NCBI GenBank assembly: GCA_022842645.1
Contig: JALHPE010000001.1
Location: 264,178-328,177 of the forward strand
Direction: 5' to 3'
Length of the DNA stretch: 64,000 nt
From: Minisyncoccota bacterium
GTDB lineage: Bacteria > Patescibacteriota > Minisyncoccia > Phycocordibacterales > UBA2100
Shown: in pieces, positions 3,121-55,712 of the stretch
Position numbering within the stretch: the first letter of the stretch is position 1
Layout: each line of letters starts with the position of its first letter
The notes under the pieces: model-generated
The model's input: the letters and a program-made list of their open reading frames with translations, nothing else
Told to the model about the DNA's origin: nothing
Databases searched by the model: none
Made by a program: the position numbers and the translations under genes

Positions 3121-3160
3121 AAAATTAGGTTCTAGGTGTTAGGGGCTAGGTTTTAGGGAA
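3121..3160 (-). promoter_or_regulatory. conserved G-poor CCTAAAACC-TAGCCCCTAACACC leader motif (rpsL-rpsG intergenic)
   Basis: mRNA-sense TTCCCTAAAACCTAGCCCCTAACACCTAGAACCTAATTTT-ATG. The same about 30-nt motif recurs upstream of nusA and ppa. Confidence 0.5.
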
Positions 3161-3577: not shown

Positions 3578-3762
3578 GCTTCTTAAGAAAAACGCGCTTC
3601 GCCAGGCGGCGAATCAGCGCCCCACGAGTGTACTACGCCTCTTCAAGTATTGCAAGAATAAAGAAAAGCGGGCTCGAACACGAACCCGCTTCTGCCGTAT
3701 CTGCAGAGCAGGCCTGAGACCTGGCAAGATGCGGACTTTGCTCCCGCATGATACCACCAGCC

Positions 3763-4392: not shown

Positions 4393-4482
4393 TGCGAGAT
4401 TTTAACATGTCTTGTTATTTGTTCCTCAAAGCGGTATACATTAGCTCGGTTCAGGCTTACTTGGTTCAAGGTGAAACTAGAT

Positions 4483-5998: not shown

Positions 5999-6074
5999 CC
6001 GAAAATTCTAGCACTTGATTGCATAGAGAATGTAAGGTATAAAACGAAGCCGCGGTAACCAAAAGGAGGAGCAC

Positions 6075-6421: not shown

Positions 6422-6470
6422 TTAGTATTTATACGGCATACAAGATACTCGATACGGTATACTTATTGGC

Positions 6471-8935: not shown

Positions 8936-8953
8936 CCCAGTAGCATAGCAATA

Positions 8954-9271: not shown

Positions 9272-10000
9272 TTACTCTTCAGCATCTCCCCCAATTTCAT
9301 CTTCGTCCCAGTATTCATGGGCTTCTGCATATGTGGGAACATACTGCCACGCGAGCATATTAAGGTAGGGGTCTGGACATCCTTGTTCAAGGTGCAGCCA
9401 ACGATTGAGACGCCAGAGCATCTCGGCCGCTACACGATCGGAATTCTCGGGCATCGGAAACTCCGTTTTGCATCCTCCGTGTAAGTTTTCGGGGTCAGGA
9501 TGGTTATGGATCGGAGACTCAATGTCTGGCTCCTCGTAACATTCCAGGTGCCACGGATTGGCCGGATTGAATCCGAAAGCTTTGCCGCCATCCATGCCTA
9601 CCCTGCCATCTGCACAAAACGAAACCTTGCCACTTTGTTTGATGGATGGCAACACATCGTGATAACGAGATTTGTTTGAGTCCACTGCCATGAGCACAAT
9701 GCCACGCAGGAGAGTGTCTTTAGTTACCCTCTCGGCATGAGTGACAATGGTCGTATCGGATGCTGGATAGATGGTGCGCGCAATGCGCGCCAGACCCTCC
9801 ACTTTCAATGTGCCGACATCTGCATCGAAATACGGCTGGTTAAAGAGATTTCTTTCTTCTAGCACATCGGCATCCCACACATGGAGATTGGGTACGCGTT
9901 TGCGAAACAAATTTAAGAAAAGCTTCGCCCCCAGCGTCCCAGCCCCCACAACGTGTACTGGTCGTTCTTTCAAAAAACTGACATTGAAGAGAGTTTCCAC
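9272..10000 (-). CDS. E1-like enzyme, ThiF/MoeB/HesA superfamily
   Basis: Rossmann motif VHVVGAGTLGAKL, then NLHVWDADVLEERNLFNQ and ILMAVDSNKSR. GTG start with AAGGAGA SD 6 nt upstream. No CxxC zinc motifs. Confidence 0.8.
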   Translation of the reverse strand: METLFNVSFLKERPVHVVGAGTLGAKLFLNLFRKRVPNLHVWDADVLEERNLFNQPYFDADVGTLKVEGLARIARTIYPASDTTIVTHAERVTKDTLLRGIVLMAVDSNKSRYHDVLPSIKQSGKVSFCADGRVGMDGGKAFGFNPANPWHLECYEEPDIESPIHNHPDPENLHGGCKTEFPMPENSDRVAAEMLWRLNRWLHLEQGCPDPYLNMLAWQYVPTYAEAHEYWDEDEIGGDAEE

Positions 10001-10093
10001 GATGGTTCTCCTTGTATGCTTTGTTCACTCTGAGCACACCCTAACGCAAGTTGCGGAAAAAGAACAGGCGCATCTTCCGATGCGCCTGTATTT

Positions 10094-10789
10094 TTATCTC
10101 CCAAAGGTCTGAATGTACCATTCAGGCACATCATCAGGAGACACCTGTGGCCACAAGCGCAAATTATCGTGTTGACCACTACACTCCGCATAGCGAACGG
10201 CAATTTCTACTAGCTGCACATGATCATGTCGTTTGAAAGCATCGATAAGCGGTGGTCCCGCATTCCCTATGCAGCCGACAGCCCCTGATAACTGAACACC
10301 GGCGGGTGCTTGCATGTCTTTTACAGCACCTTCCAGATTGATCCAGTGCATCTGATTTCGATCACCCGAGAGCAATATACTGATGAGGAAAGGGCCGACG
10401 CGATGCCACTGAGAGTCAGTGCTCTTACCAAACAGCGGATGTGTCAGTATAACAAGACTCTTACCCCGAAACTGTATACTTTCTACTTGCGGCACATTGT
10501 GGATACGATGCCATTGATCTTTATACATCTCCCGCGCTAATGCCTGAGATGCATCTTCGGCTTCGACCCGATTGAGCAAACCGTGCAAACGTGTTAGCTC
10601 TGTCTTATTTCTCCCAATGCGTTTGCGAATTTTTTTCGTCGACGAATGCCCTAGATCTCCTTTAATGCGGATTTCTATATTCTGAATGTGAGTGCGCAAA
10701 AGATTTGCTTCCTTGAGAAGTTGGTCCTGGGACTTCCCCAAATAACACATACAGAACTCAACATACTCACGTTCACAGATTGGATGCAT
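10094..10789 (-). CDS. hypothetical protein (231 aa), partner of E1-like gene
   Basis: GAGGAG SD 9 nt upstream. Charged/helical N-terminal half. C-terminal half contains HDH(x13)SGQHD, which is not a canonical JAMM motif. No confident domain call. Confidence 0.55.
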   Translation of the reverse strand: MHPICEREYVEFCMCYLGKSQDQLLKEANLLRTHIQNIEIRIKGDLGHSSTKKIRKRIGRNKTELTRLHGLLNRVEAEDASQALAREMYKDQWHRIHNVPQVESIQFRGKSLVILTHPLFGKSTDSQWHRVGPFLISILLSGDRNQMHWINLEGAVKDMQAPAGVQLSGAVGCIGNAGPPLIDAFKRHDHVQLVEIAVRYAECSGQHDNLRLWPQVSPDDVPEWYIQTFGR

Positions 10790-10851
10790 CTGGTATTCTC
10801 CTCTCTTGCCTTTGGTGTGTATACCGTGTCTTTACGAAACGGTCAACACTA

Positions 10852-11593: not shown

Positions 11594-12213
11594 TATGCAT
11601 TCGCCGGAGCGTCAGAATGAGGAGTAGTGGAGAGTGCGCGGTATGTGTGTGCGATCGCAAGAAGAGAAACCGGAACAGAGATGAGAAGTCCGATACCAAG
11701 CGCGAGGACACCAAGAATATTGATACCGATGAGAGCAAGCATGAGCATGAAAAGCGCCCACTTGTGCCCTTTTGTGATGCGCGCGCTTTCTTTTAGCGCC
11801 TCAATAGGGCCCTTGCCCGTATCCACAACAAGATAGGTTGCAAAGAGGAATGTTAAGGCGACGATAATGCCTGGCACAATAAGGAGTACTAGGCCGATGA
11901 GAACCGCAATCGTGGTCATAATCTTTACCGCAAGATACGGAAGAAACGCCTTTGGATACCACAAATCGGCAATCTTAACCTGAGTCACATCATCATGTGC
12001 CTTAAGAATGAACGCAATAAGACCAAGTTCTATCAAAACATTTATCACAAGTGCCGCGAGCACGAGAATTATTGACCCATCTTCCCCAGGAAGTGCGTTC
12101 ACAATACTCGAAAGAATAAGAACGAGAAGAATGCTGCCCACCAGAAACAAGGGGCGCTTCAGAAACGTCTCCCACGCTGCTTTGATAGTCGGCACAACCA
12201 TGATGGTTTGCAT
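11593..12213 (-). CDS. hypothetical membrane protein
   Basis: Multiple TM helices. Start trimmed to internal Met (MQTIMVV); the upstream ORF extension is low-complexity. Confidence 0.5.
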   Translation of the reverse strand: MQTIMVVPTIKAAWETFLKRPLFLVGSILLVLILSSIVNALPGEDGSIILVLAALVINVLIELGLIAFILKAHDDVTQVKIADLWYPKAFLPYLAVKIMTTIAVLIGLVLLIVPGIIVALTFLFATYLVVDTGKGPIEALKESARITKGHKWALFMLMLALIGINILGVLALGIGLLISVPVSLLAIAHTYRALSTTPHSDAPANA

Positions 12214-12244
12214 GCAGGAAGTATACCAAAACCCACTATCCGAG

Positions 12245-13921
12245 CTACCGCGGGGTGAGGATATCCTGCAAACGAAGCGCAAGCGCCCCCTGCCCGCGAA
12301 ACACATCCCGTTCAATGGTTGCAAGTATGTCTGCAGAGAGACCCGGCGAAGGGAGGAGTGAAAAATCGGTTGGTGTCTTGAAAAACTGAAATGCGCGGCG
12401 CGAAACTCCCGACTGTGTGCATACAAGAGTCACTTCAGTATGGTTCATGTCCTTACCAAACTGTCTCGCAAAGGTGATGCGGGTTTCGCGCACTCGAAAC
12501 ACCGGCTTCGGATTCCCTATGCCAAATGGCGCAAGACGCTCGAGCTCGCGCAGAAAATCTGGCGACACTTCTCTCAGAAGAATGTCAATATAATCGCTTT
12601 CGTTTGGCGCATTCGTGCGGGCCTCAGATGCACACGACGTGGCTGCTTCGGCGAGCATTTCAGGAAGCGTATGTATGCTTTCTCGAGAAACGGAAAAACC
12701 GCCGGACGCATGGTGGCCCCCAAACTCAATCAGATGCTCTTTGGCATTCGTAAATACTTCAACCACCGAGTGTGCGCCATCCGAACGACACGAACCTTTC
12801 AAGCGGCCGAGAGCATCCTCTCCCCACACGCACACCATCCCACCGCGCTCTTCCATAACAGCGTTTGCAACGAGACCGCACAGACTCGGTTTCCACGTCG
12901 TATCGCCAAGTACGGTTACTAATTCCCCGCCCTGGTAACGCGCACGAGCGCGTGCCTTTGCCTCGCGCGTCATCGCCGCAACGGTGCCGCGACGCTTACG
13001 ATTGAGTGACTCCAGCTCTCGCGCAAGTTTCTCTGCCTCTTCGTCGCTCTCTGTGGTGAGAAGACGAAATGCGAGCTCGGGCACATCCATACGCGAGGCA
13101 GCATTGATGCGCGGCGCGATGGTAAAACCAATGTCACCCTCCGTCATCTCGGAAAGGCGCACTCGCGCGCTCGTCGCGAGTGCACGAAGCCCAGGTCGTC
13201 GTGATTTGCGGAGCACGGTCAGCCCGAAGTGTACGAGCGCACGATTCTCCCCCACAAGCGGAACAAGATCTGCCACCGTTGCAATCGCAACCAAATCCAA
13301 GAGCCATTTCTCCCACCCCTCCGGCACTGCCGCAAAAGAGGCTTCGCCTCTTGTGCGGCCTTCGATGAGTAGCGCTGATGCCAATTTCCACGCAACTCCG
13401 GCACCGCAGAGATCGCGAAACGGATAATCGCCGCGTTTTGGATTAATCACAATGGCATCAGGGAGCGTTTCTTTGAGTTCGTGGTGGTCCGTCACAATTA
13501 CATCAATTCCGAGACTGCGCGCATGCGCGACACCATCAAACGCCACCGTTCCCACATCAACCGTGATAATAAGAGAAACACCCTTCTCTTTGAGAGAATC
13601 GATTGCTTCCGCGTGAAAACCGTATCCCTCCCTGTCGCGGTGCGGAATGTAGACCTCAGCATTCTCGTAGCCAATCTTTTTAAACGTCTCAAATAACACA
13701 GCGGAGCCAGGAATGCCATCGCAGTCAAAATCGCCATACACAGCAATCTTCTCGTTCGCGTGCATGGCTGCAAACACCCGCGCAACCGCCACGTCCATAT
13801 CGGTAAGCAAAAAAGGATCGTGCGTATCCCGCGCAAAATCCGGCTTCAAAAAACGTTCCTGTTCTGCTGGATCCGTAATACCACGTTTATGAAGAAGCAT
13901 CTCAACCAGATCCGAAGTCAT
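12245..13921 (-). CDS. recJ: single-stranded-DNA-specific exonuclease RecJ
   Basis: DHH (VYGDFDCDGIPG, DHH) and DHHA1 domains, full length. Confidence 0.9.
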   Translation of the reverse strand: MTSDLVEMLLHKRGITDPAEQERFLKPDFARDTHDPFLLTDMDVAVARVFAAMHANEKIAVYGDFDCDGIPGSAVLFETFKKIGYENAEVYIPHRDREGYGFHAEAIDSLKEKGVSLIITVDVGTVAFDGVAHARSLGIDVIVTDHHELKETLPDAIVINPKRGDYPFRDLCGAGVAWKLASALLIEGRTRGEASFAAVPEGWEKWLLDLVAIATVADLVPLVGENRALVHFGLTVLRKSRRPGLRALATSARVRLSEMTEGDIGFTIAPRINAASRMDVPELAFRLLTTESDEEAEKLARELESLNRKRRGTVAAMTREAKARARARYQGGELVTVLGDTTWKPSLCGLVANAVMEERGGMVCVWGEDALGRLKGSCRSDGAHSVVEVFTNAKEHLIEFGGHHASGGFSVSRESIHTLPEMLAEAATSCASEARTNAPNESDYIDILLREVSPDFLRELERLAPFGIGNPKPVFRVRETRITFARQFGKDMNHTEVTLVCTQSGVSRRAFQFFKTPTDFSLLPSPGLSADILATIERDVFRGQGALALRLQDILTPR

Positions 13922-13986
13922 CAGACGATTCTACCATTTTTCGTATTTTCTCTTTGGGAGCATCTGCATTTTGCTATACTCTACAC

Positions 13987-14397
13987 ATGCCGGAGTGCAT
14001 TTTTTGCAAAATCGTTGCGGGCACAATTCCTGCCGAGCGAGTGTATGAAGACGAAAAAACACTTGCCTTTCTTGATATCACCCCGGTAAATCCTGGGCAC
14101 ACATTGGTCATCCCTAAGAAACACGCCGCGGATGTGTTTGAAATTGAAGAAGACGAGTGGAAAGCAGTGATGCATGCAGCGCGTACGGTGGCACACATGC
14201 TTGAAAAATCCCTCGGCGCGCATGGCGTGAACGTTACTACCAACAACCGCCCCGCAGCAGGGCAAATCGTTTTTCATTCACACGTGCACGTCATCCCCCG
14301 TTTCGATGGCGACGGTTTTCAGAATTGGAAAGGAACGCCTTATGTACAAGGCGAAGCACAAAAGATGGCAGAAAAAATCAGAAACGCCAATGCCTAA
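13987..14397 (+). CDS. HIT family hydrolase
   Basis: CIFCKI and HxHxHxx (HSHVHVIP) histidine-triad motifs. Start placed at MPECIFCKIV. Confidence 0.85.
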   Translation: MPECIFCKIVAGTIPAERVYEDEKTLAFLDITPVNPGHTLVIPKKHAADVFEIEEDEWKAVMHAARTVAHMLEKSLGAHGVNVTTNNRPAAGQIVFHSHVHVIPRFDGDGFQNWKGTPYVQGEAQKMAEKIRNANA

Positions 14398-19027: not shown

Positions 19028-19726
19028 TCATTTAGTCGCAAGTGTGGATAGCAACGTTTCCGCACGCGCAAGGTCTTCCGGTGCTTTTATCTCAATCCAC
19101 ATTGTTGCGCGAACGATATGAATTGGAATTGCATGTGCAAGTTTTAGCATCGTTTGCGGTAAGCCCAATTCACTTGAACCGACGGCCTTAGGAACAGGGA
19201 CGACGTCAAATATGCGCATGTCGAGTACATAGAGCCCCGTGTTTGCGAACCCTTTTTCACCCCCATGATCATCATTTTCAGCAATATCAGTAATGCGATC
19301 TTTTTGATCTACTACCACACGCCCGGTTCTAATACGGTCTTTCTCTTGCACCAAAACGGCCCAATTAGTAGTGTGTGTACACGTTGATATATCTGCTGAG
19401 GCGTAAATATTGTCCCCATTCATCACAAGAAAACGATCACGAAGGTGCGGTCGTGCAAGCCATAACGCTTGTGCAGTGCCTCCCGTTGGATTTTCTTGCA
19501 CAACATAAATAAGCTTCTTGCCGTTGTACGAATCTCCAAAGCGCTCAATGATTCTCTCTTTCAAGTAGCCAACAACAAGCACAATCTCGTGCACCTCCTC
19601 TGGAAGCGCATCAAATTTGTGCTCAAGAAGCGTCTTTCCGAATACAGAGAGCATCGGCTTCGGGAGCATGTGGGTCAGAAGTCCCATGCGAGTCCCCCTC
19701 CCCGCGGCTAAAATCACTGCTTGCAT
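19028..19726 (-). CDS. sugar-phosphate nucleotidyltransferase (NTP_transferase family)
   Basis: MQAVILAAGRGTRMG...LPKPMLSV G-rich motif. Start placed at Met34 because NTP-transferases begin at this motif. Confidence 0.8.
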   Translation of the reverse strand: MQAVILAAGRGTRMGLLTHMLPKPMLSVFGKTLLEHKFDALPEEVHEIVLVVGYLKERIIERFGDSYNGKKLIYVVQENPTGGTAQALWLARPHLRDRFLVMNGDNIYASADISTCTHTTNWAVLVQEKDRIRTGRVVVDQKDRITDIAENDDHGGEKGFANTGLYVLDMRIFDVVPVPKAVGSSELGLPQTMLKLAHAIPIHIVRATMWIEIKAPEDLARAETLLSTLATK

Positions 19727-19731
19727 AGATA

Positions 19732-19759
19732 GCTTGTAGAGTACAGCTTGTAGCTTGTA
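19732..19759 (-). repeat. TACAAGC heptamer repeats (2 tandem plus 1 after a degenerate unit) immediately upstream of the nucleotidyltransferase start
   Basis: mRNA-sense CACTACAAGCTACAAGCTGTACTCTACAAGCTATCT-ATG. Same heptamer family as in the pilin leaders. Confidence 0.6.
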
Positions 19760-19845
19760 GTGGGAAGCCCTGGTTGAATCTAAATTCGTGTACATAAAAA
19801 AGACCCGCCAGAGGTCCGAGAACATGGCGGGTCAGACGTGAAGTC

Positions 19846-23277: not shown

Positions 23278-24030
23278 TTATGCATCCTTCATGACTCGAA
23301 GGAGCTCGGCAAGCCGCTTGGCGTCCACACTTGCGCGGCCCACAAGAAATCCTTTCACACCGCCATGCTCAAGCATCGTGCCCACATTAGTTCCATCAAC
23401 CGCACCTCCGTAGAGAATCATGAGCTTGTGTCCCACCTCACCATATTTCTCTACAAGCGCTTTACGAATATAAATACTCATTTCGTGCATGTCGTGCGGA
23501 CGCATGGGCTCTGCCGCACCAATTGCCCACACGGGCTCATAGGCAATAATAACTTTTGCAATTTTCTGCTGCGGCACATCACGAAGTGCGGTGAGAAGTT
23601 GCTCACGCACAAACGTAAAATGCGACCCTTCGTCATCGCGGACATGCTCACCAATGCAAATGATGGGCGTCATCTCAAGCGCAAGGAGTGCCGCAACTTT
23701 CTTTCGCACATCATCATCCGTTTCTCCCATAGCGCGACGCTCCGCGTGCCCCACAAGCGCATAGTTGGCTTTCGCATCTTTCGCCTGCAGTGCTGAAACC
23801 TCGCCCGTAAAAGAGCCGCTCTGTTCAAAATGAACATTCTGCGCGGCAAGCCCAATCTTTCCACGTCGAAGCCCTCCTATGTCGCGCAAAAAAATAGGGG
23901 GAGCTGCAACAATCACCGACACCTTGAGGAGTCCACTCATCCGTTTCGTCTCTTCAAAAAGCTTCTTGGCTTCCTTCCAGGAAATAGGATTCATCTTCCA
24001 ATTCGCAACAACAAGCGCCTTCATGGGCAA
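23278..24030 (-). CDS. tpiA: triosephosphate isomerase
   Basis: Full-length TIM similarity (ANWKMN, AYEPVWAIG, GGAV). TACAAT hexamer 9 nt upstream of the ATG. Confidence 0.9.
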   Translation of the reverse strand: MPMKALVVANWKMNPISWKEAKKLFEETKRMSGLLKVSVIVAAPPIFLRDIGGLRRGKIGLAAQNVHFEQSGSFTGEVSALQAKDAKANYALVGHAERRAMGETDDDVRKKVAALLALEMTPIICIGEHVRDDEGSHFTFVREQLLTALRDVPQQKIAKVIIAYEPVWAIGAAEPMRPHDMHEMSIYIRKALVEKYGEVGHKLMILYGGAVDGTNVGTMLEHGGVKGFLVGRASVDAKRLAELLRVMKDA

Positions 24031-24089
24031 GATTGTAGCATGGTGGTGTGCATGATACCGTGTGTCATATGTAGATCAGGAGAGGTGAC

Positions 24090-26687: not shown

Positions 26688-28438
26688 CTGTTGAGTATGA
26701 TTGATAACCTCGATGTTCCCGACACATTCACTTCAGTCGAATTAAATGTTTGATAGCCGCTTGCCGATGCTTCAATAGTGTATGCGTTTCCTCCACCAAC
26801 ACTTCCCGCACTGAGACTGCTCCAAAAAGCGTTGCCGCAGGTGTCGCTCGTACGCGTCACATCAAAGCCGCCGCGCGTAAGGCGCACCGATGCGTTCGGT
26901 ATTACTACCCCCGCACTTGTCTTCACATCAACAAGAAGAGAATTCGTCGTCTGCGGAGAAAGAATGATTCGCGTTGTCTGCGCCGAGTTCGGCGTGAGTG
27001 TTTCCGGCTGCGGTGCACATGCTGAAGAAATATCATATCCACTGGTGTCGGGCACGATCACCGTGTACGCGTCCCACTCAAGATTCTGAATGAGGAGAGA
27101 TCCGGATGCGCCACTCGAATGAGTCGAATCATACTTATAGATGAGCGCCCCGCCAGCGGTGGTGCCGATTGTTTTTGCACCGCGCAGTGTAAACGAAACA
27201 TTCGGAAGCGGATGCGGGCCAGAATCATACGAGAGTCTCCAAGCGTCCACTGACGGCGTCGTCGATGCATTCCCTGTTGTGAGACGCCCGCGCACGACGA
27301 GTCCGGGATAGGTTGACGTTGAAACACCACTCACATTAATCGGTGACATGGTGAACCCGCCACTGTTTCCCGGGAGCTGCGAATCAGAAACGAGCGTTGT
27401 GCCAGAGCTGTCATACAGTTGTATATAGAGAGCGGTGCCACTCGGCGTATTTGCATCCCACGAAAGTGTTTTCCACGCGACAAGCGTCGAGGTTGAAACG
27501 ACGTTTGAAAAGAATGTACCTTCAAAGGGGTATTCGCCCGCCGTCTCGGTGAGCGCCACAATGCCTCCTGCAATCGTGACGTTTGATGTCGATGCAGTTC
27601 CTGCACCACCTGAAAATGTTTCCGTTGTCGTTGCGGTTGTGACCGGCGTGTATGTTTCAATGCGCTTTTCTGAAACGCGATCAATCGCAAAGGTTCCCGC
27701 AGTCGTGGTATCGAGCGCGACGGCAAGATGCGCAGGGATAGGATTCGTATTCGTTGCGTTTGCGGCATAGGTACGCGCAGTGGAGTAACCAGTTTTCGTA
27801 ACAGTAATCTGATAGCCGGCTCCTGGAGGCACACCTAAAATAGTTGCCTTGCCGTTTTCGTCAGTGAAACGCGTGAGATCAATCGTGGGAACGAGCGTGG
27901 TATTCACGACTTCCACCTCTGCGTTTGAAACAGGAAGAAGTGCGGCGTCCACCACTTCAATTGCAAGAACACCGCCCGGCACCGAGGCTTCAATTCCCGG
28001 AGGAGAAACGCGTGTGAGGAGTTCAATAGTGTGCACACCATCGCGCCCATTCCACGAAACTTGCGACTTCACCGCTTTGTAATCCGTTTCAATGCCATTT
28101 TCATCTGCACCACCAAGTCCATCCGCCGGATCATCTTCGTAGGAAATAAAAGTTCGGCGCGTGTAGGGCACATCATTGAGTTCGATACTTTCAACTTGTG
28201 CGAGCGCACCCGCAGGAATGCCACCAGCAGTCCCGACCGCGTTATAAGAAAGTGAACGAATGAATTCGAGTCGCTCGTTTGCAAGTGCAATCGCTCCCGC
28301 CCGCGCCTTGTTATTCCCCACCGCCATCACAGTCAAACGAAATGCGCCGGCAATACCGACAAACACCACAAGCATGAGCGCAGTGCCCACCACCGCATCA
28401 AGTAGCGTCGAACCTCGTTCCCCGCGAGGAAACCACAT
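26681..28438 (-). CDS. large pseudopilin-like protein (about 586 aa)
   Basis: Short leader MWFPRGERG then STLLDAVVGTALMLVVFVGIAG hydrophobic helix. Start placed at Met19, which leaves the 28455-28482 terminator hairpin outside the gene. TACAAT 8 nt upstream of this ATG. Confidence 0.65.
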   Translation of the reverse strand: MWFPRGERGSTLLDAVVGTALMLVVFVGIAGAFRLTVMAVGNNKARAGAIALANERLEFIRSLSYNAVGTAGGIPAGALAQVESIELNDVPYTRRTFISYEDDPADGLGGADENGIETDYKAVKSQVSWNGRDGVHTIELLTRVSPPGIEASVPGGVLAIEVVDAALLPVSNAEVEVVNTTLVPTIDLTRFTDENGKATILGVPPGAGYQITVTKTGYSTARTYAANATNTNPIPAHLAVALDTTTAGTFAIDRVSEKRIETYTPVTTATTTETFSGGAGTASTSNVTIAGGIVALTETAGEYPFEGTFFSNVVSTSTLVAWKTLSWDANTPSGTALYIQLYDSSGTTLVSDSQLPGNSGGFTMSPINVSGVSTSTYPGLVVRGRLTTGNASTTPSVDAWRLSYDSGPHPLPNVSFTLRGAKTIGTTAGGALIYKYDSTHSSGASGSLLIQNLEWDAYTVIVPDTSGYDISSACAPQPETLTPNSAQTTRIILSPQTTNSLLVDVKTSAGVVIPNASVRLTRGGFDVTRTSDTCGNAFWSSLSAGSVGGGNAYTIEASASGYQTFNSTEVNVSGTSRLSIILNSL

Positions 28439-28454
28439 ATAACTATTGTAGCGT

Positions 28455-28500: not shown

Positions 28501-28866
28501 TTACATCTGCACATCCCGCGCTTCAGTGAGCAGTTTGATGATGTCGCCTTTGGAAACCCAGGAGCGGTCATTGTAGTCGCCCGCATTTTCACATTGGCCT
28601 CGTGTCTTCTTTCGCACTAACGCATCTAGCTCAAGGTCACACGATTCCACTACATCAAAAGGCGCGCGGATGCTCCCGCCACCGCCATAGACAGCGCCCA
28701 GGGCGCAACAACACACAACATGAGAACGATTGTTGTACAGATCATCCCTGTCTAACAGCCATCCTGTTGCATCTCGTCCGTAACTTTCTTTCAAAAGCTT
28801 ACGCTGTTGAAGATACTGAATAGCAGCATCAAAGATGCGCCATTTCGTCGAACGTTTTTTTGTCAT
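28501..28866 (-). CDS. hypothetical protein (121 aa)
   Basis: ORF with CCCALGAVYGGGGS segment. No domain recognised. Confidence 0.45.
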   Translation of the reverse strand: MTKKRSTKWRIFDAAIQYLQQRKLLKESYGRDATGWLLDRDDLYNNRSHVVCCCALGAVYGGGGSIRAPFDVVESCDLELDALVRKKTRGQCENAGDYNDRSWVSKGDIIKLLTEARDVQM

Positions 28867-29078
28867 TCTGTCCTCCTGTGGCAGATGATTGTAGGCTCAT
28901 TTCCGCTCACACCCTACCCCAAGACTTCTACTTTTCCAACCCCACCAACCTAAGCGAGACGAGTTGTGAAAATGTACTTTTGACGGGGCCCCGCAGGCGA
29001 CGGCCGAGGATTTTGAGGTATTTTTCCAGCAGGAAAAATCCGTGCCCGTCAAAAGTACATTTTCACAACTCGCGAGCC

Positions 29079-30296
29079 CTAAATATTCTCCGAAAGCTGA
29101 TAGATCGGCGAGATCATCGCAACTGCGAAGAAGCCCACAGCGCCGCCAATTGCGATCATGAGAAACGGCTCAATCACCGTCGACATATCTTTCGTCTTTC
29201 GGTCCACCTCATCTTCGTAAAAGATAGCGAGTTTTTTCATCATGTCGGTAAGCTGCCCTGTTTCTTCTCCCACCGCCATCATCTCCCCCACAAACGCCGG
29301 ATAGAGGTGTTCGTTCCGCACAAAGGCAGCAGAGAGTGGCTCGCCCTTCCCCACATTCTCACGCGCCTCCACGACCACTGCCTTGAAATAACTGTTCTGC
29401 ACCACATCCGTCACAATCTCAAGCGAAGTAATCACATCCACGCCGGAAGAAAGGAGTGACGAGAGTGTGCGCGAAGCACGCGCCGCGTTCACTTCTTTCA
29501 CAATAGGACTAATAAGCGGGATGTGGAGGAATATAAAATCACGCACCCGAGACCCCGTCGCCGTTTTCACAAACGCAAAGATGCCACCAAAGAAAAGTAC
29601 AACCGCCGAAAATGCGACCACCGTGTAAGAGACTAGAAAATTAGAAACCGCGATGATTGCTTTTGTGGAAGCGGGAAGCTCCGCATCCATTTCCGCAAAG
29701 GTCTGTGCCAGGGTTGGCACCACGTTGATCATCATGAAAGCACCAATACCAATGATCGCAAACACTATAATGGCGGGATACAGGAGCGCGCCGCGAATCT
29801 TCTTCTTCAAAACATACATGCGCTCCATTTGTTCTGAAACAACCACAAGTGACTGCGAGAGCTGCCCGCCTTCCTCACCCGCACGAGTCATCGCGATAAA
29901 CAGTTTTGAAAAGATGCGCGGAAACTTCGCGAGTGCGGAGTGAAGCGTCTCGCCGCGGCGCACTGCGCCTGAAAGTTCGGTCACCACTTCAGCAAGGCGC
30001 GCATTCTTTGTCTGTCGCTCAATCACCGCAAGCGCACGCGCAAGCGAGAGCCCCGCAGAAAGCATCGCACCAAGGTTTCGCGCAAAGAGCACTTTGTCAT
30101 ACTCCGGGACGCTTGAAATCTTTGCATTCCAGTGCGCGAGTGAAAACCAAGACTTCGCCCCATCTTCCTCAACCGAAAGAATGCGACCACCCTCGTGGCG
30201 AACAATTTCATAAAGCGCAAAACGATCTTTCGCATCTGCGGTTCCCTTGTACACTTCCCCTCCCGCTTTCTCAGCAGTGTAAGTAAATTTCGCCAC
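29079..30296 (-). CDS. pilC: type IV pilus assembly / type II secretion platform protein PilC/GspF
   Basis: Two GspF repeats, about 406 aa from a GTG start (VAKFTYTAEKAGGEVYKG). The 132-aa upstream extension in the track is not PilC-like and overlaps a terminator and the 108-aa gene. TATAAT hexamer 6 nt upstream of the GTG. Confidence 0.85.
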   Translation of the reverse strand: MAKFTYTAEKAGGEVYKGTADAKDRFALYEIVRHEGGRILSVEEDGAKSWFSLAHWNAKISSVPEYDKVLFARNLGAMLSAGLSLARALAVIERQTKNARLAEVVTELSGAVRRGETLHSALAKFPRIFSKLFIAMTRAGEEGGQLSQSLVVVSEQMERMYVLKKKIRGALLYPAIIVFAIIGIGAFMMINVVPTLAQTFAEMDAELPASTKAIIAVSNFLVSYTVVAFSAVVLFFGGIFAFVKTATGSRVRDFIFLHIPLISPIVKEVNAARASRTLSSLLSSGVDVITSLEIVTDVVQNSYFKAVVVEARENVGKGEPLSAAFVRNEHLYPAFVGEMMAVGEETGQLTDMMKKLAIFYEDEVDRKTKDMSTVIEPFLMIAIGGAVGFFAVAMISPIYQLSENI

Positions 30297-30323
30297 ACAG
30301 TCATTATACCGTGCAAAAACATG

Positions 30324-30353
30324 CAAAAAAAAGAAGCGGGGGGTTCCCGCTTC
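30324..30353 (-). terminator. strong rho-independent terminator (minus strand)
   Basis: GAAGCGGG-AACCC-CCGCTTC followed by TTTTTTTTTGC in minus sense, directly after the 108-aa ORF stop. Confidence 0.75.
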
Positions 30354-30678
30354 AGTCACCTTCTTTAGATGATCTATTTCTAGCACTCTCGAGAGCTTCG
30401 AAGTGACCATCCACATGCACCCGAAACTCTTCCCATTGATTCCGTGACAGTTCGAGTGCCGCGGAAAAAACTCCCGTAGAGCACTCGACAAAAAGTGTTC
30501 GGACAAAATCTTCAGCTTTTGTATTTCCACCAAAACCACCAATAAAGAACTCGATATGTTTCTTGGTAAGCCGCAGATCGTGAAGAAGCGGCGGTCGATT
30601 ATGCACTTCGCGCCAAAACGAATCGAGTGTTTTCTCTTCGCGTAGCTTTTGTAGGTCGACAATGTTGTCTGTAGCCAT
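30352..30678 (-). CDS. hypothetical acidic protein (108 aa) between pilB and pilC
   Basis: Clean ORF in a different frame from the spurious PilC extension. Followed by a strong terminator. Confidence 0.5.
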   Translation of the reverse strand: MATDNIVDLQKLREEKTLDSFWREVHNRPPLLHDLRLTKKHIEFFIGGFGGNTKAEDFVRTLFVECSTGVFSAALELSRNQWEEFRVHVDGHFEALESARNRSSKEGD

Positions 30679-30737
30679 GTCTCACACCTCAAGGACGTTG
30701 CTGTTTTGAATATATCATCGGAGTCGTATCAAGCAAC

Positions 30738-36416: not shown

Positions 36417-36429
36417 GTACACTCGCCGA

Positions 36430-37503
36430 ATGTCCAAAAAACCAAAAATTACTCGAGACGAAAAACGCTGGGAACTCATCCTCGAAGGCGAAATCGCACC
36501 AGAATCCATTGCTGAACACCGCGAACACGTGATTGCGGGCTTTGTGAAAGACGCCCACCTCCCTGGCTTCCGCCCCGGCAAAGCCCCTAAAGAACAAGTC
36601 TTAAAGCACGTCGGCGAAGCGGCCATCCTTCGCGAAACAATCCAGCATGCAATCCAGCACGAACTCCCAGAACTCCTCGCAAAAGAAGAAGCACATATCG
36701 TTGCGGCTCCACAGGTGACCGTCGAAAAAGCACCTGATTCGTTCCCCGCAACAGAGCCGATTGTCTTCACCGCTCGCGCACCTCTCGCACCTGAAGTGAA
36801 ACTCGGCGACTACACATCGATCGCAAAGAAACACAACGGAGATAAGAAAGAAGTTGAAGTAACCGACACCGAACACGCAGAAACGATGAATCACTTAAAG
36901 CGCGAACGCGCACGTATCACCAAAGTCGAGCTTGGTCTTACCCCCGCCGAAGCCGCAGAAGAAGCGCGTAAAATGGAAGAAAAAGATCTTCCCGCACTCG
37001 ACGATGAGTTCGTAAAATCTCTCGGCTACGAAAGTGCGGAGAAATTCTCCGAAACCGTTCGCACCAACATCAAGACAGAAAAAGAAATGAAAGAAACAGA
37101 AAAGCGCCGCGCGACCATGCTCGATGAAATCGTCAAAGATTCAAAAGTCTCCTACCCTGCCCTCCTTAAAGAATACGAACTCGACGACATGGAATCCCGC
37201 ATGAAAGACGACATCGAACGCATGGGCCTTTCTATGGAGAAATACCTTGCGGAAACAAAGAAATCGCTCGCCGACATCCGCAAAGAATGGGATGAACCAG
37301 CAGATAAGCGCGCCAAAATGCGCCTCGTTCTCGCGCACATCGCGCAGGCAGAAAAAATCGACGCCGACCCAGCGCGCGTGGAAAACGAATTCACCCACGC
37401 GAAAGCCCACTACAAAAACGCCAGCGAATCCGACCTCCGCACCCACATCGCCCACGCTCTTAGGAACGAAGCGGTCATCACGTGGCTCGAGCAACAAGTT
37501 TAG
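36430..37503 (+). CDS. tig: trigger factor
   Basis: Ribosome-binding N-domain (GFRPGKAPK motif) and C-terminal chaperone arms. Start placed at MSKKPKITRD (track ORF begins with TTG at 36415 inside the terminator T-run). Confidence 0.85.
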   Translation: MSKKPKITRDEKRWELILEGEIAPESIAEHREHVIAGFVKDAHLPGFRPGKAPKEQVLKHVGEAAILRETIQHAIQHELPELLAKEEAHIVAAPQVTVEKAPDSFPATEPIVFTARAPLAPEVKLGDYTSIAKKHNGDKKEVEVTDTEHAETMNHLKRERARITKVELGLTPAEAAEEARKMEEKDLPALDDEFVKSLGYESAEKFSETVRTNIKTEKEMKETEKRRATMLDEIVKDSKVSYPALLKEYELDDMESRMKDDIERMGLSMEKYLAETKKSLADIRKEWDEPADKRAKMRLVLAHIAQAEKIDADPARVENEFTHAKAHYKNASESDLRTHIAHALRNEAVITWLEQQV

Positions 37504-38213: not shown

Positions 38214-38304
38214 AGGATTCAGTTCGTGGGCATTAAAGTATAAGTTGCAGTCACACACACTTCAACATGGCATCCAAAAACTCCTCGTGCTACCATCCCC
38301 GCAT

Positions 38305-38904
38305 ATGAAAAACACACCCATAACCGCACAAATGTTAGTCCCGATGGTCGTTGAGAAAACCACCATGGGCGAGCGCGCCTATGACATCTACTCCCGCCTT
38401 CTGAAAGAGCGCATTGTCTTTCTTGGCGGCCCGATTGACGACCACGTGGCGAATCTCGTGATCGCTCAGCTCCTTTTCTTAGCAAGCGAAGATCCAAAGA
38501 AAGATATTTCTTTCTATATCAATTCCCCTGGTGGACACGTCTCGTCCGGCCTCGCGATCGTAGACACCATGAATCATATCCAGCCGGATGTCTCGACTGT
38601 GTGCGTTGGTATGGCGGCCTCCATGGGTGCGGTACTTCTCTCAGCGGGTAAAAAGGGCAAACGCTTCGCGCTTCCGAATGCCGAAGTGATGATTCACCAA
38701 CCTTCAGGCGGTGCAGAAGGCCAGGCGTCCGATATCGCGATAACCGCGAAGCACATACTTGCAACACGTGAGCGCTTGAACAAAATTCTTGCGAAAAATA
38801 CCGGACAGTCAGTTAAAAAGATCGAAACTGACGTCGATCGCGACTTCTTTATGACCGCCGACGAAGCAAAAACCTACGGCGTCATTGACAAAGTGCTCGA
38901 ATAG
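38305..38904 (+). CDS. clpP: ATP-dependent Clp protease proteolytic subunit
   Basis: [33 protein letters not shown] and catalytic Ser/His/Asp context ([11 protein letters not shown]). Start is either 38305 or 38332; the track start at 38179 overlaps the antisense gene. Confidence 0.9.
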
Positions 38905-43656: not shown

Positions 43657-43696
43657 GAGTCCCTATCATACAGCCAAACTGCTCTGTAATGCTAGA

Positions 43697-45166
43697 ATGC
43701 GTCTGATGAAGCTTGAAGTGCCTCAAATCGTACATGATGTGCACGCGCGCCTCAGAGAAGCTGGTTTTGAGGCATATCTAGTCGGTGGATGTGTGAGAGA
43801 CCTCCTACTCGGGCGCATTCCTAAAGATTGGGACATCACTACAAACGCAACTCCCGAACAAATTCAACCTTTGTATGATGAAACGTTTTACGAGAATGCG
43901 TATGGCACCGTGGGAGTTGTCACTGAGTCTGACGACCTAAAACTAAAAGTCGTAGAGATAACGCCATACCGAACCGAAGGGAAGTACTCAAACGCCCGAC
44001 ACCCTGACGAGGTGGCGTGGAGCACAAACCTCTCCGACGATCTAAAGAGGCGTGATTTCACCATAAACGCGATTGCATATGATCCCGTATCTGAAACTAT
44101 TGTCGATGAACATGGGGGAAAAGAAGATTTAGAGCGTAAAACACTAGTTGCCGTGGGAAATCCGGAGGATCGTTTTGCTGAAGACGCACTTCGAATGCTC
44201 CGCGCAGTGCGCCTTGCCGCGGAACTTGATTTTGCGCTCGATGGCGCTACCGCTGCAGGAATAGCCCTGCATGCGGGAAAACTCGCCGACATATCTCGAG
44301 AGCGCGTGCGCGATGAGTTTATACGAACACTCGAGAGTGACCGCCCAATGCAAGCGCTTTATGTGGCTCAAAAACTAGGTATTTTGAAGCACATCATTCC
44401 TGAACTGGAAGAGGGGATTGGGTGCGAACAAAATCAAGCGCACTCATTCGATGTGTTTGAGCACCTTCTGCGAGCCATGCAACATGCTGCAGATGAAAAA
44501 TGGCCGCTTGTGGTGAGACTTTCAGCACTCCTCCACGACGTTGGAAAACCCGCCACAAGAAAGTGGTCGGATGAAAAGAAAGATTGGACATTCCATGGAC
44601 ACGACGTCGTAAGCGCGCGTATGGCGCGAACAATACTTGCGGATCTACGTATATCCAAAGACCTCGCTCAAAAAGTGGAGTCCCTCGTGCGATGGCATAT
44701 GTTCTTCTCGGATCCCGACACCATCACACTTTCTGCGGTTCGCAGGGTCATAACGCGCGTAGGAACCGAGAATATCCAGGATCTTCTTAAGCTCAGGGTG
44801 TGTGACCGAATTGGCACAGGACGCCCTAAAGCACATCCATTCAGGCTTCGTAAGTACATGTCCATGGTAGATGAAGCAATGCGCGATCCGATATCCGTGA
44901 GCATGCTAAAAGTGAACGGGGAAGATATACAAAAAATGGGGGAGAAGCCTGGGCGTCGCATAGGATGGGTTCTTCATGCACTTCTTGAAGAAGTGCTCGA
45001 AGACCCTACAAAAAACACAGCCGAAGCCCTTACGGAGCGCGTACAGGTACTACTCTCACTCCCCGATAAAGAATTGCAGGATCTCGGGGAAGCGGGGAAA
45101 GACCGAAAAGAAGAGGAGGAGAAAGGGGTGGTAGCGGAACTGCGCAAGAAACATCACGTACGTTAA
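43697..45166 (+). CDS. cca: CCA tRNA nucleotidyltransferase with HD domain
   Basis: GGCVRDLLLGRIPKDWDITT polymerase head motif. HD domain (LLHDVGK). Full length. Confidence 0.9.
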   Translation: MRLMKLEVPQIVHDVHARLREAGFEAYLVGGCVRDLLLGRIPKDWDITTNATPEQIQPLYDETFYENAYGTVGVVTESDDLKLKVVEITPYRTEGKYSNARHPDEVAWSTNLSDDLKRRDFTINAIAYDPVSETIVDEHGGKEDLERKTLVAVGNPEDRFAEDALRMLRAVRLAAELDFALDGATAAGIALHAGKLADISRERVRDEFIRTLESDRPMQALYVAQKLGILKHIIPELEEGIGCEQNQAHSFDVFEHLLRAMQHAADEKWPLVVRLSALLHDVGKPATRKWSDEKKDWTFHGHDVVSARMARTILADLRISKDLAQKVESLVRWHMFFSDPDTITLSAVRRVITRVGTENIQDLLKLRVCDRIGTGRPKAHPFRLRKYMSMVDEAMRDPISVSMLKVNGEDIQKMGEKPGRRIGWVLHALLEEVLEDPTKNTAEALTERVQVLLSLPDKELQDLGEAGKDRKEEEEKGVVAELRKKHHVR

Positions 45167-49208: not shown

Positions 49209-50354
49209 TTATTTCAAGTATTTCCTCCTCTTCAACTTCTCCGGCAGATAACTTTTGGTGTCATACATTTTGTACCCCTCACCGTATTTCAAATCTTTCA
49301 TTAGTTTCGTAGGGGCGTTACGAATGTGGAGCGGAATAGGGAGGTTCCCGTGTTTTTTTACGTCCTCGAGTGCGGCAAAGATCCCGTCATACGCGCGACG
49401 GTCTTTTTTACACTGTGCGAGATAGACGACGCCGTGCGCAAGGTTAATGGTAGCTTCGGGGTAGCCGATTGATCGCACTGCTTCAAAAACCGCATTCGCA
49501 ACGACAAGCGCCGTTGGTTGTGCGAGCCCCACATCCTCACTCGCAAAAATAACCATGCGCCGTGCAATGAATTTTGCGTCCTCCCCCGCATCCACCATTC
49601 GTGCCAAGTAATAAAGCGCGGCATCCACCTGCCCAGCGCGCATTGATTTAATAAATGCGGAAATGGTGTTGTAGTGCTCCTCACCCTTCTTGTCGTAGCG
49701 CAAATGCTTTGACTGCACCGCCTCTTTCAGAGTCTCAACAGAAATCTTCCCATAAAGCCTTTGCGCTGTTTCTAACACCGTTATTGCCTGTCGAGCATCT
49801 CCTCCAACCATCTGCAAAAGCCATGCCCGCGCATCTTTCGGCACTTTGAGCTTCGTGCGCACAATTATTTTCTCCATTTCGCTCTCAGAGAGTTCGTTCA
49901 ATACGAATACTCGACAGCGAGAGAGGAGGGGAGCAATAACCTCAAACGAAGGATTCTCGGTCGTCGCACCAATAAAGGTGACGTCGCCGCGCTCCACAAA
50001 GGGAAGAAGGTAGTCTTGCTGTACCTTATTGAACCTATGAATCTCATCAACAAAAAGGATGCGCGGCTTCTGTGAGAGAAGTCCACTCCGCCCGCCAACC
50101 ACCTTCCGCACATCATCCTTGCCCGCTTCCACTGCAGAAAGCTCGAAAAAATCCGCACTGAGGGCATGTGCGTAAATACGTGCGAGCGTCGTCTTTCCAC
50201 TCCCCGGAGGCCCCCACAAAATAAACGAGAAGAGTTCTTTCTTTTCTATCGCAACACGTATTGGTTTCCCCGCGCCGGTAAGATGCTCCTGCCCCACATA
50301 CTCACGGAGAAGTTGGGGGCGAATACGAGAGGCGAGAGGTTCGCTCATGCACAA
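49209..50354 (-). CDS. rarA: replication-associated recombination protein RarA/MgsA (AAA+)
   Basis: Walker A GPPGSGKTTLAR, Walker B FVDEIHRFNK, MgsA C-terminal helical domain. Confidence 0.9.
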   Translation of the reverse strand: MCMSEPLASRIRPQLLREYVGQEHLTGAGKPIRVAIEKKELFSFILWGPPGSGKTTLARIYAHALSADFFELSAVEAGKDDVRKVVGGRSGLLSQKPRILFVDEIHRFNKVQQDYLLPFVERGDVTFIGATTENPSFEVIAPLLSRCRVFVLNELSESEMEKIIVRTKLKVPKDARAWLLQMVGGDARQAITVLETAQRLYGKISVETLKEAVQSKHLRYDKKGEEHYNTISAFIKSMRAGQVDAALYYLARMVDAGEDAKFIARRMVIFASEDVGLAQPTALVVANAVFEAVRSIGYPEATINLAHGVVYLAQCKKDRRAYDGIFAALEDVKKHGNLPIPLHIRNAPTKLMKDLKYGEGYKMYDTKSYLPEKLKRRKYLK

Positions 50355-50416
50355 ATTATATGCTTCTCCCCAGGAAGTGCAGTTGCCAAAACAGTATGAG
50401 TGTGTACCCTTACGGA

Positions 50417-50944
50417 ATGCAGACTAAACTCATTGGCATAATCGTACTTATCATTCTTTTAGCAATCGGTGGTTATTTCGTGTGGGGATGGATGGCGCCA
50501 AGTGATACAACCACAGCATCAACAGACAACACAGGGACACCTAATCCAAATCTCCCACAAGTAGAGGGGCAAGATGTAACGGTAGGCACAGGCGCAGAAG
50601 CTACACCCGGCTCGATCGTCTCTATTCTCTATGTTGGTATGCTCGAGGACGGAACCGTCTTCGACAGCTCGGCAAACAATAACAATCAGCCTCTTGTGTT
50701 CCAACTCGGAGCAGAGGGCATCATCCCCGGGTTCCAGATTGGAGTAAACGGTATGAAAGAGGGTGGCGAGCGCCGTATCTCCATCCCATCCGAACTTGGG
50801 TATGGCGGTGAGGGCGTAAAGGACGCAGCTGGCACTCAAATCATCCCCGGAAATGCGAAACTTGTTTTCGATGTCCGCCTCGTGAAGGTTGAACCAGCTC
50901 CCGCAGGCACTCCTTCAGCACCAGGAGCCCCGGCAAGTAATTAG
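50417..50944 (+). CDS. membrane-anchored FKBP-type peptidyl-prolyl cis-trans isomerase
   Basis: N-terminal TM helix then FKBP domain (VTVGTGAEATPGSIVSILYVGMLEDGTVFDSS...GFQIGVNGMKEGGERRISIP). Confidence 0.8.
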   Translation: MQTKLIGIIVLIILLAIGGYFVWGWMAPSDTTTASTDNTGTPNPNLPQVEGQDVTVGTGAEATPGSIVSILYVGMLEDGTVFDSSANNNNQPLVFQLGAEGIIPGFQIGVNGMKEGGERRISIPSELGYGGEGVKDAAGTQIIPGNAKLVFDVRLVKVEPAPAGTPSAPGAPASN

Positions 50945-50980
50945 CTTGCTAGAAGCAAGGGAATGTGCTATCATTCCCGA

Positions 50981-51247
50981 ATGCTCACAAAGCGGAAGAA
51001 GCAGAATGAAATCTCAAAAGTTTCCCGTCACGATACCGATACGGGCTCTCCTGAGGTGCAGGTCGCTATCCTCACGCGCCGTATTGAGGAACTTTCCCAG
51101 CATTTGGACAAAAATCGCAAGGACAAGAGTTCGCGTCGAGGCCTTCTTGGCCTTGTTGCCGACCGCCGCAAGCACTTGAAGTATCTCGAGACGAACAATA
51201 AGCGCGCCTACAGCGCCCTTACGAAGAAGCTTGGGCTCAAGAAGTAA
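50981..51247 (+). CDS. rpsO: 30S ribosomal protein S15
   Basis: DTGSPEVQVAILT...HLDKNRKDKSSRRGLLGLV canonical S15. Hairpin GGGAAT-GTGCTATC-ATTCCC ends 3 nt before the ATG. Confidence 0.9.
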   Translation: MLTKRKKQNEISKVSRHDTDTGSPEVQVAILTRRIEELSQHLDKNRKDKSSRRGLLGLVADRRKHLKYLETNNKRAYSALTKKLGLKK

Positions 51248-55691: not shown

Positions 55692-55712
55692 TTTCCGCGT
55701 TACAATAGCGGC

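Follow-up and report, generated by a model that had tools for sequence, protein, structure and literature searches.

The start codons considered here lie in a 64,000-nucleotide stretch of contig JALHPE010000001.1 (positions 264,178 to 328,177), hereafter the window, and the element in question is a −10-like hexamer, TAnnnT, found 6–8 nucleotides (nt) upstream of the start of many of its genes, pilC among them. The window has a GC (guanine plus cytosine) content of 51% and is part of a Patescibacteria (candidate phyla radiation, CPR) genome of the Paceibacteria/Kaiserbacteria type. The relatives of pilC found in one-genome-per-species contigs were all metagenome-assembled genomes (MAGs) of Patescibacteria, labelled Kaiserbacteria, Paceibacterota, Nomurabacteria or 'Patescibacteria group'; the best was 92% identical and about 30 more were 60–80% identical. 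Gene names given in an initial annotation of the window agree with Pfam for pilC, pilB, tpiA, pgk, the nucleotidyltransferase (NTP-transferase) gene, rpsL, rpsG, nusA, tig, clpP, rny, pnp, sodA and the genes for a ThiF/E1 protein and a cupin. Genes rpmB and rpsO are also present, the latter by its Pfam S15 match, and an Rfam scan of the window returned four tRNAs only. Comparisons were made with 74 related loci (L001-L074), of which 34 close and 36 more distant Paceibacteria loci were used for the spacing test described below, and with same-species public data from the Logan assemblies SRR28154519-31 (L075-L090). Coordinates are collected in Table 1.

The start region of pilC and similar modules

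The initial annotation described TATAAT-GACTGT-GTG directly after a terminator at the 5′ end of pilC, and this arrangement is present on the minus strand. The terminator was also detected by a terminator scan (30353-30333), and 16 nt separate it from the −10 box. Translation from the GTG opens with MAKFTYTAEK, an N-terminus typical of the family, and the N-terminal similarity boundary in alignments of 74 pilC orthologues peaks at the GTG codon. No match came from searches for the exact PilC sequence, whether begun at the GTG or at an internal start. A TATACT or TATAAT hexamer a few nucleotides before the start was seen by eye in 24 of 25 orthologues of 60–92% identity (L001-L016, L018-L025 and L053; the spacings, 6–8 nt, were counted for L001-L016), and in the single orthologue lacking it pilC directly follows pilB. 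The pilC transcript is predicted to start at the G of the GTG.

The modules quoted for the pseudopilin gene and tpiA, and the promoter-like sequence upstream of rpsL, were likewise found as described (Table 1). The pseudopilin arrangement, TACAAT-6 nt-ATG, is identical in L001, L002, L005, L030 and L031. For tpiA, 'TGnTACAATcgccnc ATG' recurs in most of the 26 orthologues displayed (TGnTACAAT-6/7 nt-ATG; 50–82% amino acid identity), with exceptions that include L009 and L066, and position 2 of the Pfam TIM profile aligns at residue 4. The string TACAAG-ctatct-ATG of the NTP-transferase gene also exists, but its TACAAG was rejected as a −10 box, and with it the leaderless assignment: it lacks the T that is invariant at the last position and forms one unit of a (CTACAAG)n tandem array. 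Position 2 of the NTP_transferase Pfam profile falls at residue 36 of the long open reading frame (ORF).

Spacing of the hexamer and classes of start

In a start-agnostic test, all ATG, GTG and TTG codons within the first 25 codons of each long ORF were taken as candidate starts and the spacing to an upstream TAnnnT was scored. TAnnnT occurred at exactly 6 nt for 18 of 159 candidate starts in the window (66 ORFs), against a background of about 1.6% at other spacings (about 2.5 matches each) and 0.7% for internal in-frame candidates (binomial p=9e-11); spacings of 7 and 8 nt contributed four and two further matches. The close related loci gave 102, 54 and 37 matches at 6, 7 and 8 nt in 524 ORFs (p=9e-44), and the same 6-nt peak, weaker, was present in the distant loci (p=5e-15).

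A table of 66 genes was then curated, with starts backed where possible by Pfam profile coordinates and orthologue N-termini. The hexamer lies 6–8 nt before the start in 32 of them (48%), at exactly 6 nt in 25, and these starts comprise 29 ATG and three GTG codons. Shine-Dalgarno (SD) motifs lead 13 genes, G-poor repeat leaders precede seven, five are coupled to the upstream gene, and nine belong to none of these groups. Members of the hexamer class include ung, sodA, comEC, recJ, HIT, tpiA, the pseudopilin gene, pilC, tig and clpP, as well as cca, exoIII, a XerC-like recombinase gene, trmB, mgsA, rpsO, comM and uvrD. The predicted leaderless starts are thus more numerous than those first listed, although the NTP-transferase gene has to be removed from that list and a missing SD cannot be equated with a leaderless start (see below).

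Eight starts (pilC, tpiA, HIT, comEC, DUF975, uvrD, NTP-transferase and S7) were fixed independently by Pfam coordinates or orthologue N-termini, and 13 starts of the hexamer class are the first start codon past the upstream stop. The N-terminus of Ung, MAKEVKIGGGWKEKL...PYF, resembles that of E. coli Ung. A 'CATAAT-6-ATG' before pgk was not accepted as a promoter: it shares bases with the stop codon of tpiA, and orthologues have not kept it.

Promoter-like character of the hexamer

A G at −14, preference for ATG, position in the transcription unit and conservation in orthologues played no part in the selection of hexamers. G stands at −14, two bases upstream of the hexamer, in 20 of the first 28 genes and 23 of the final 32, and the extended −10 TG (TGn) is present in 14 of 32. 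The same base was found in 55% of the 6–8-nt hexamers of the related loci as against 25% at other spacings (p=9e-13), and in 51% as against 23% in the distant loci (p=1e-11). ATG makes up 81–92% of the starts behind 6–8-nt hexamers in related loci and 50–63% otherwise, and the commonest hexamers there are TATACT, TACAAT and TATAAT. No conserved column was seen around −35 in a matrix aligned on the hexamer, and a scan for canonical −35/−10 pairs gave 8 matches where 10.4 were expected, that is, not above shuffles; trmB is an exception (Table 1).

The modules are found directly 3′ of terminator hairpins (pilC, tig, pseudopilin, comEC and a small helix-turn-helix (HTH) gene at 20853) and back to back in divergent intergenic regions of 65–70 nt (recJ/HIT and mgsA/fkbp), and no such hexamer precedes the operon-internal genes pgk, rnhA, ksgA, PGb2 and rpsG. 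Transcription usually starts at the seventh base past a −10 hexamer, and in 21 of the first 28 genes this base is the A of the ATG. The spacing is kept in pilC, tpiA and HIT orthologues over 50–90% amino acid identity while the flanking bases diverge; most HIT orthologues retain a −10-like hexamer 6 nt before the ATG. For recJ, tig and the pseudopilin gene the arrangement is kept only in a subset of genomes, several recJ orthologues having TACAAT 7–8 nt before the ATG and several tig orthologues TAGACT, TACACT or TAAACT before it. The hexamers are predicted to be promoters of the extended −10 sigma-70 type.

Genes led by Shine-Dalgarno motifs

An AGGAG/GGAGG-type motif lies 5–10 nt before the start of 13 genes. 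AGGAG itself occurs at this distance in 7 of 57 starts (p=5e-8), and this enrichment indicates that the SD signal is real in this genome. Apart from a GGAG at the coupling site of pgk, SD-like motifs were seen only in the 13 short accessory genes. Textbook SDs had been reported for the gene at 315-689, the ThiF/E1 pair, the gene at 24090-24323, a cupin gene and an XRE gene; the first four have them, 7–8 nt before the start, but no XRE gene could be identified, the only weak HTH ORF in the window (20614-20853) having TACAAT-6-ATG and no SD. With 13 well-placed SDs, the anti-SD of this genome may be retained; the 3′ end of 16S was sought, and no rRNA gene was found in the window, loci L001-L074 or the flanking Logan contigs.

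The SD-led genes are short (median 129 residues in ten tested, p=3e-4) and, except for ThiF/E1, the cupin and DUF6197, belong to no Pfam, PHROG or PADLOC family. In the pilus-nusA-tig neighbourhood they are insertions, none of five being found in at least five related loci as against 14 of 19 neighbours (p=0.006), and the syntenic regions of 70 relatives do not contain them. The orphan hyp30352, between pilB and pilC, has no homologue in the 74 loci. Across the comparison set, SD-class ORFs recur in a median of 0 other loci and extended −10 ORFs in 28 (p=5e-13; size-matched p=7e-10). Because they are short, orphan and absent from related loci, the SD-led genes are accessory and lineage-specific.

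A foreign origin of these genes is plausible. The initial annotation had proposed that the context of the start tells two sets of genes apart, native ones that are leaderless and SD-dependent ones gained by horizontal transfer. The shortness of the SD-led genes, their general lack of families and their absence from relatives agree with this, as do a slightly poorer fit to the codon usage of other genes (p=0.018) and a GC content of 0.49 against 0.52 (p=0.06). However, an accessory gene need not be a foreign one, the analysis identified no donor lineage and composition gives a weak signal. Nor is the division binary, since native genes with SD-less leaders or repeat leaders exist, pgk has its GGAG, and poor conservation is also found in many of the predicted leaderless genes, which code for hypothetical proteins. 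Taken over all related loci, SD motifs show hardly any enrichment; about 60 SD-class ORFs are expected there by chance, as estimated from motif frequency. What stands of the proposal is that the SD-led genes are short orphans absent from relatives; the division into native leaderless and acquired SD-dependent genes we consider possible, at somewhat less than even chances.

Two particular origins were rejected. A phage origin found no PHROG matches, weak ones to ThiF apart, and no close IMG/VR relatives for the three genes tested. The sole sign of a defence-system origin was a weak match of ThiF/E1 to the E1 part of E1-E2 (Cap2) models of CBASS (cyclic oligonucleotide-based antiphage signalling system; best E=1e-8). 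The E1 cassette (9272-10789, minus strand) consists of a 231-residue orphan and the 242-residue ThiF/E1-like protein; the pair may be all that is left of a ubiquitin-like conjugation or defence module, or a minimal form of one.

Starts with neither an SD nor an adjacent hexamer

The statement that rpsL, nusA, tig, clpP, rny, pnp and sodA lack an SD was correct for all seven genes. Lack of an SD does not imply a leaderless mRNA, however, because SD-less genes with leaders, with repeat leaders or coupled to an upstream gene also exist, and there are therefore more than two classes of start. The predicted leader of rpsL (Pfam S12) is about 43 nt long, that of pnp about 63 nt with a hairpin, and that of pilB about 19 nt, all without an SD; ppa has a G-poor repeat leader behind a TACACT box, and pgk, rnhA and ksgA are coupled to the upstream gene.

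Terminator-like hairpins followed by a T run lie in the leaders of rpsL (hairpin 3620-3593, span 3587-3620, minus strand) and nusA (hairpin 32792-32810, span 32792-32815, plus strand, upstream of the repeat leader). Standing between promoter and start, they could be attenuators. The pnp leader hairpin (51975-52000, plus strand) is reminiscent of an RNase III autoregulation site. No ribosomal protein leader or riboswitch known to Rfam was matched in the window for the rpsL, nusA or pnp leaders.

A further kind of start is seen at a gene for a trypsin-like protease (364 residues, with signal peptide), whose ATG at 41237 comes one base after tRNA-Gly(tcc) (41165-41236, plus strand). Judged from this junction, tRNA 3′ processing of the RNase Z type would release an mRNA starting at the AUG, that is, a leaderless one, in a manner like mitochondrial tRNA punctuation. 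No other ORF abuts a tRNA in this way among the tRNAs detected in the window and the related loci.

Heptamer repeats and pilin hairpins

Period 7 is the commonest class of tandem repeat in the window and the 74 loci (1.24 Mb), with 123 of 531 arrays as against 31 of period 6 and 42 of period 8, and 81 of the 123 lie at gene 5′ ends. The G-poor leaders consist of about 4–5 tandem heptamers with a CTA/CTG core (CCTAACA/CCTAGAA, CTACAAG, ATCTAAT). In the window they end 4–20 nt before the ATG of rpsG, the NTP-transferase gene, nusA, ppa and a hypothetical gene, and a single G-poor array also precedes pilB. The same type of leader, with a different unit, is found upstream of nusA, pilB and ppa in L001-L032. 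Lag-7 autocorrelation in the 45 nt upstream of nusA, ppa and pilB orthologues was 0.31–0.32 compared with about 0.25; the signal is only modest, and heptamer leaders therefore occur in a subset of genomes and are not universal. They could act as a non-SD translation element.

A second arrangement is found in the minor-pilin genes downstream of pilC, where two heptamer arrays, complementary to each other, flank the start codon or the region of the leader peptide. These pairs fold into long periodic hairpins whose loop contains an ATG (z = −4.4 for the window, −6.4 for L002 and −3.6 for L025), and the unit sequence varies by genome while complementarity is preserved. A complementary partner within 150 nt was found for 23% of period-7/14 arrays and 4.6% of arrays at other periods. 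Phase variation at the arrays was rejected, as they are identical in seven independent same-species Logan assemblies. Logan contigs tend to break at heptamer arrays.

The minor pilins have prepilin-like junctions, ..RG|MTLIEA and ..RG|VTVILV (26586-26640 and 25944-26001, minus strand). In pp26020 the residue with which the mature part begins is itself encoded by an in-frame ATG (M28), and translation from this ATG would, by this reading of the sequence, give a pilin that needs no prepilin peptidase. Tandem NNATACN heptamers also stand before some of the predicted leaderless promoters, the last unit being a functional-looking TATACT; such −10-like arrays at 7-bp spacing occur at sodA (6436-6463, plus strand) and upstream of pilC in L002 (9965-9993), L011 and L028 (3414-3441).

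Table 1. Start-region features of the window and of three related loci; promoters and leaders are predictions
Feature	Coordinates	Strand	Sequence or remark
pilC	29079..30296	−	T2SSF platform protein, 405 residues from GTG; Pfam T2SSF 5e-57
pilC upstream terminator	30325..30353	−	hairpin GAAGCGGGAACCCCCCGCTTC, 8-bp GC-rich stem, T8; ends upstream small gene
pilC module	30294..30308	−	cgg TATAAT (30308-30303) gactgt GTG (30296-30294)
Pseudopilin (26681-28438) module	28436..28450	−	TACAAT agttat ATG, directly after terminator-like hairpin
tpiA module	24022..24040	−	TGc TACAAT cttgccc ATG; extended −10, 7-nt spacer
ung	1406..1420	−	TACCAT-6-ATG
M50 peptidase	4390..4404	−	TGt TAAAAT-6-ATG
Metallo-beta-lactamase-fold protein	5996..6010	−	TGc TAGAAT-6-ATG
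sodA	6436..6473	+	four tandem NNATACN heptamers, last = TATACT, then 7 nt, ATG
comEC	8933..8947	−	TGc TATGCT-6-ATG after hairpin; orthologue alignments begin at residue 13-17 of long ORF
DUF975	12211..12225	−	TGg TATACT-6-ATG; orthologue alignments begin at residues 69-73
recJ	13933-13919	−	TGg TAGAAT-6-ATG; divergent from HIT
HIT	13975-13989	+	TGc TATACT-6-ATG; divergent from recJ, 65-nt intergenic region (13919..13989)
tig	36418..36432	+	TACACT-6-ATG directly after terminator
clpP	38291..38307	+	TGc TACCAT-8-ATG
cca	43693..43708	+	TGc TAGAAT-7-ATG
exoIII	46362-46348	−	TGa TATGAT-6-ATG
xerC-like	47324-47308	−	TATAAT-8-ATG
trmB	48114-48100	−	TTGACA-17-TAGGAT-6-ATG
mgsA/FKBP, divergent	50346..50419	mgsA −, FKBP +	mgsA TATAAT-6-ATG; FKBP TACCCT-6-ATG
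rpsO (S15)	50969..50983	+	TGc TATCAT-6-ATG; Pfam S15
comM	55701..55715	+	TACAAT-6-GTG
uvrD	58641..58655	+	TGc TATAGT-6-GTG; Pfam UvrD domain position
hyp62028	within 62026..63059	−	TACACT-6-ATG
hyp62052	within 62026..63059	+	TATACT-7-ATG
hyp63057	within 62026..63059	+	TATACT-6-ATG
SD-led E1 cassette	9998..10802	−	hyp10094 AGGAGaataccagATG; ThiF/E1 AGGAGaaccatcGTG
DUF6197 gene (SD-led)	28864..28877	−	AGGAGGacagaATG; own TACAAT 23 nt before ATG (~16-nt leader)
hyp30352 (SD-led)	30676..30690	−	GAGGTgtgagacATG
rpsL promoter and leader	3575..3655	−	TTGCAA (3655-3650) -17 nt- TACACT (3632-3627), 49 nt before ATG 3577
nusA promoter	32733-32760	+	TTGACA-16-TATACT, about 100 nt upstream of ATG 32862
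Repeat leader, rpsL-rpsG spacer	3121..3160	−	G-poor, CCTAA/CCTAG units; ends 4 nt before rpsG ATG
NTP-transferase start region	19724..19760	−	ATG 19726 preceded by (CTACAAG)x4.4 array 19730-19760 (Tandem Repeats Finder, period 7)
Repeat leader, nusA	32820-32861	+	G-poor, CCTAA repeat
Heptamer leader	34480-34519	+	
Heptamer leader	35938-35969	+	
Complementary array pair	26601-26631 + 26666-26689	−	
Complementary array pair	25962-25993 + 26014-26023	−	
Array pairs, L002	13688-13779, 14362-14458		
Array pairs, L003	13728-13804, 14378-14470		
Array pair, L025	10810-10896		

Predicted leaderless transcripts and alternative explanations

It is highly probable, in our view, that the extended −10 promoters yield mRNAs without a 5′ untranslated region (UTR) and that these are translated by the leaderless route. 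Sigma-70-type promoters (TGnTAnnnT, with no recognisable −35) would drive most transcription units and would be placed so that the start codon's A (or G) is the seventh base past the hexamer. Such transcripts would have no 5′ UTR, or 1–2 nt at most, and would therefore be translated by the leaderless route, the ribosome and initiator tRNA binding the 5′-terminal AUG or GUG without SD pairing. Minority start contexts are the SD-led short accessory genes, G-poor heptamer-repeat leaders on some highly expressed genes, SD-less leaders and coupling.

The motif, its spacing and statistics, its conservation and its promoter-like properties are observed; a transcription start at the start codon and leaderless translation are what we infer from them. 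Several points weigh against this explanation. About six of the 32 starts were chosen partly by the motif (fkbp, NYN, hyp35127, hyp62052, PGb3 with CATAAT, and mgsA). Spacers of 7–8 nt could give leaders of 1–2 nt, and promoters further upstream may give leadered isoforms. GTG, used at three of these starts, is a poor leaderless start in E. coli, though it is accepted in mycobacteria.

Alternatively, TAnnnT might be a non-SD ribosome-binding or translation-enhancing element within ordinary 5′ UTRs, in the style of the Bacteroidota 'group B'. Some non-SD signal is to be expected where SD motifs are rare and part of the Parcubacteria lack an anti-SD, and TAnnnT sits at a distance also used by ribosome-binding motifs (PMC6028130). 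A group-B motif should, however, precede operon-internal genes too, and the five listed above have no TAnnnT. The hexamer moreover matches the −10 consensus, complete with the extended −10 G or TG at −14/−15; it often lies so close to a terminator, 15–25 nt downstream, that no other promoter would fit between them, and the 65-nt recJ/HIT intergenic region contains no other promoter-like element. We consider this alternative improbable. That the spacing arises by chance or from the choice of starts, ordinary promoters being followed by normal leaders and true starts further downstream, is very improbable: start codons in MAGs are unverified and for several hypothetical genes the motif-bearing candidate was preferred, but the start-agnostic test gave p=9e-11 to 9e-44, and the eight independently fixed starts and the 13 first after an upstream stop also speak against it.

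Returning to the leaderless explanation, it can be extended into a wider one, in which a Paceibacteria lineage largely gave up SD initiation for several SD-independent start architectures. These would comprise leaderless mRNAs for about half of the genes, heptamer leaders on nusA, ppa, rpsG, pilB and the NTP-transferase gene, start hairpins on pilins, and one mRNA released from a tRNA 3′ end, and any SD motifs that survive would belong to recent accessory acquisitions. The heptamer arrays would then constitute a cis-acting start-region element of a new class and might serve, for instance, as a landing site for an S1 protein of 3–4 domains or as a gate for pilin translation. Taken as a whole this extension is speculative, and we think it unlikely to hold in all its parts.

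Relation to known systems

A Pribnow box 6–8 nt from the starts of first genes in operons is the diagnostic of 'group C' of GeneMarkS-2, typical of Actinobacteria and Deinococcus-Thermus, in which 25–50% of operons are leaderless and internal genes use other signals; leaderless examples with mapped transcription starts are M. tuberculosis and D. deserti (about 60%) (PMC6028130). The window shares this box with Mycobacterium tuberculosis, Corynebacterium, Streptomyces and D. deserti, here before 48% of genes, and is predicted to represent a known leaderless architecture in a new lineage. It differs from group C in belonging to Patescibacteria/CPR and in its extended −10 without a −35. SD motifs also appear nearly absent from its remaining native genes, rather than being the default for leadered genes. 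A TG or G one base upstream of the hexamer and the lack of a conserved −35 are shared with extended −10 sigma-70 promoters, which are a minority class elsewhere, whereas here they look like the prevailing kind of promoter in this part of the genome. Group B likewise has housekeeping genes without an SD, but its motif is not a promoter and stands before all genes, while the present motif resembles a promoter and stands only where transcription units begin.

Among Parcubacteria, the same broad lineage, only 48% had a detected anti-SD motif, and bS21 is frequently missing (Tsurumaki et al. 2022, PMC9297842). These findings agree with a low dependence on the SD in the lineage and provide a rationale for SD-independent initiation. 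That study describes rRNA and ribosomal protein content, not mRNA 5′ architecture, and full-text searches brought up no paper on leaderless mRNAs in CPR/Patescibacteria, Parcubacteria, Saccharibacteria or Kaiserbacteria, though supplementary tables may list some. The present results link the reduced CPR ribosomes, with their losses of anti-SD and bS21, to a concrete mRNA architecture, and predict a reliance on leaderless initiation of the 70S type and on −35-independent promoters.

Gene callers that favour an SD or the longest ORF misplace such starts, and the errors reach protein-family, signal-peptide and structure analyses of CPR MAGs. Public calls for this species and the starts supported here differ for pilC (443 residues, across the terminator, against 405), uracil-DNA glycosylase (238 against 222), uvrD (661, 24 codons further upstream, against 637) and S7 (144 against 153), and one pilin gene of identical DNA is annotated at 181, 188 and 206 residues, reflecting different start choices by gene callers. 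Promoter-start modules would offer a means to delimit transcription units in MAGs, and expression constructs for the few Patescibacteria that can be cultivated could be designed simply on the pattern TGnTAnnnT-6 nt-ATG. Beyond the right end of the window, the same-species contig L075 carries PrgI- and TraC-like genes (8956-16011), a cluster resembling those of type IV secretion or conjugation.

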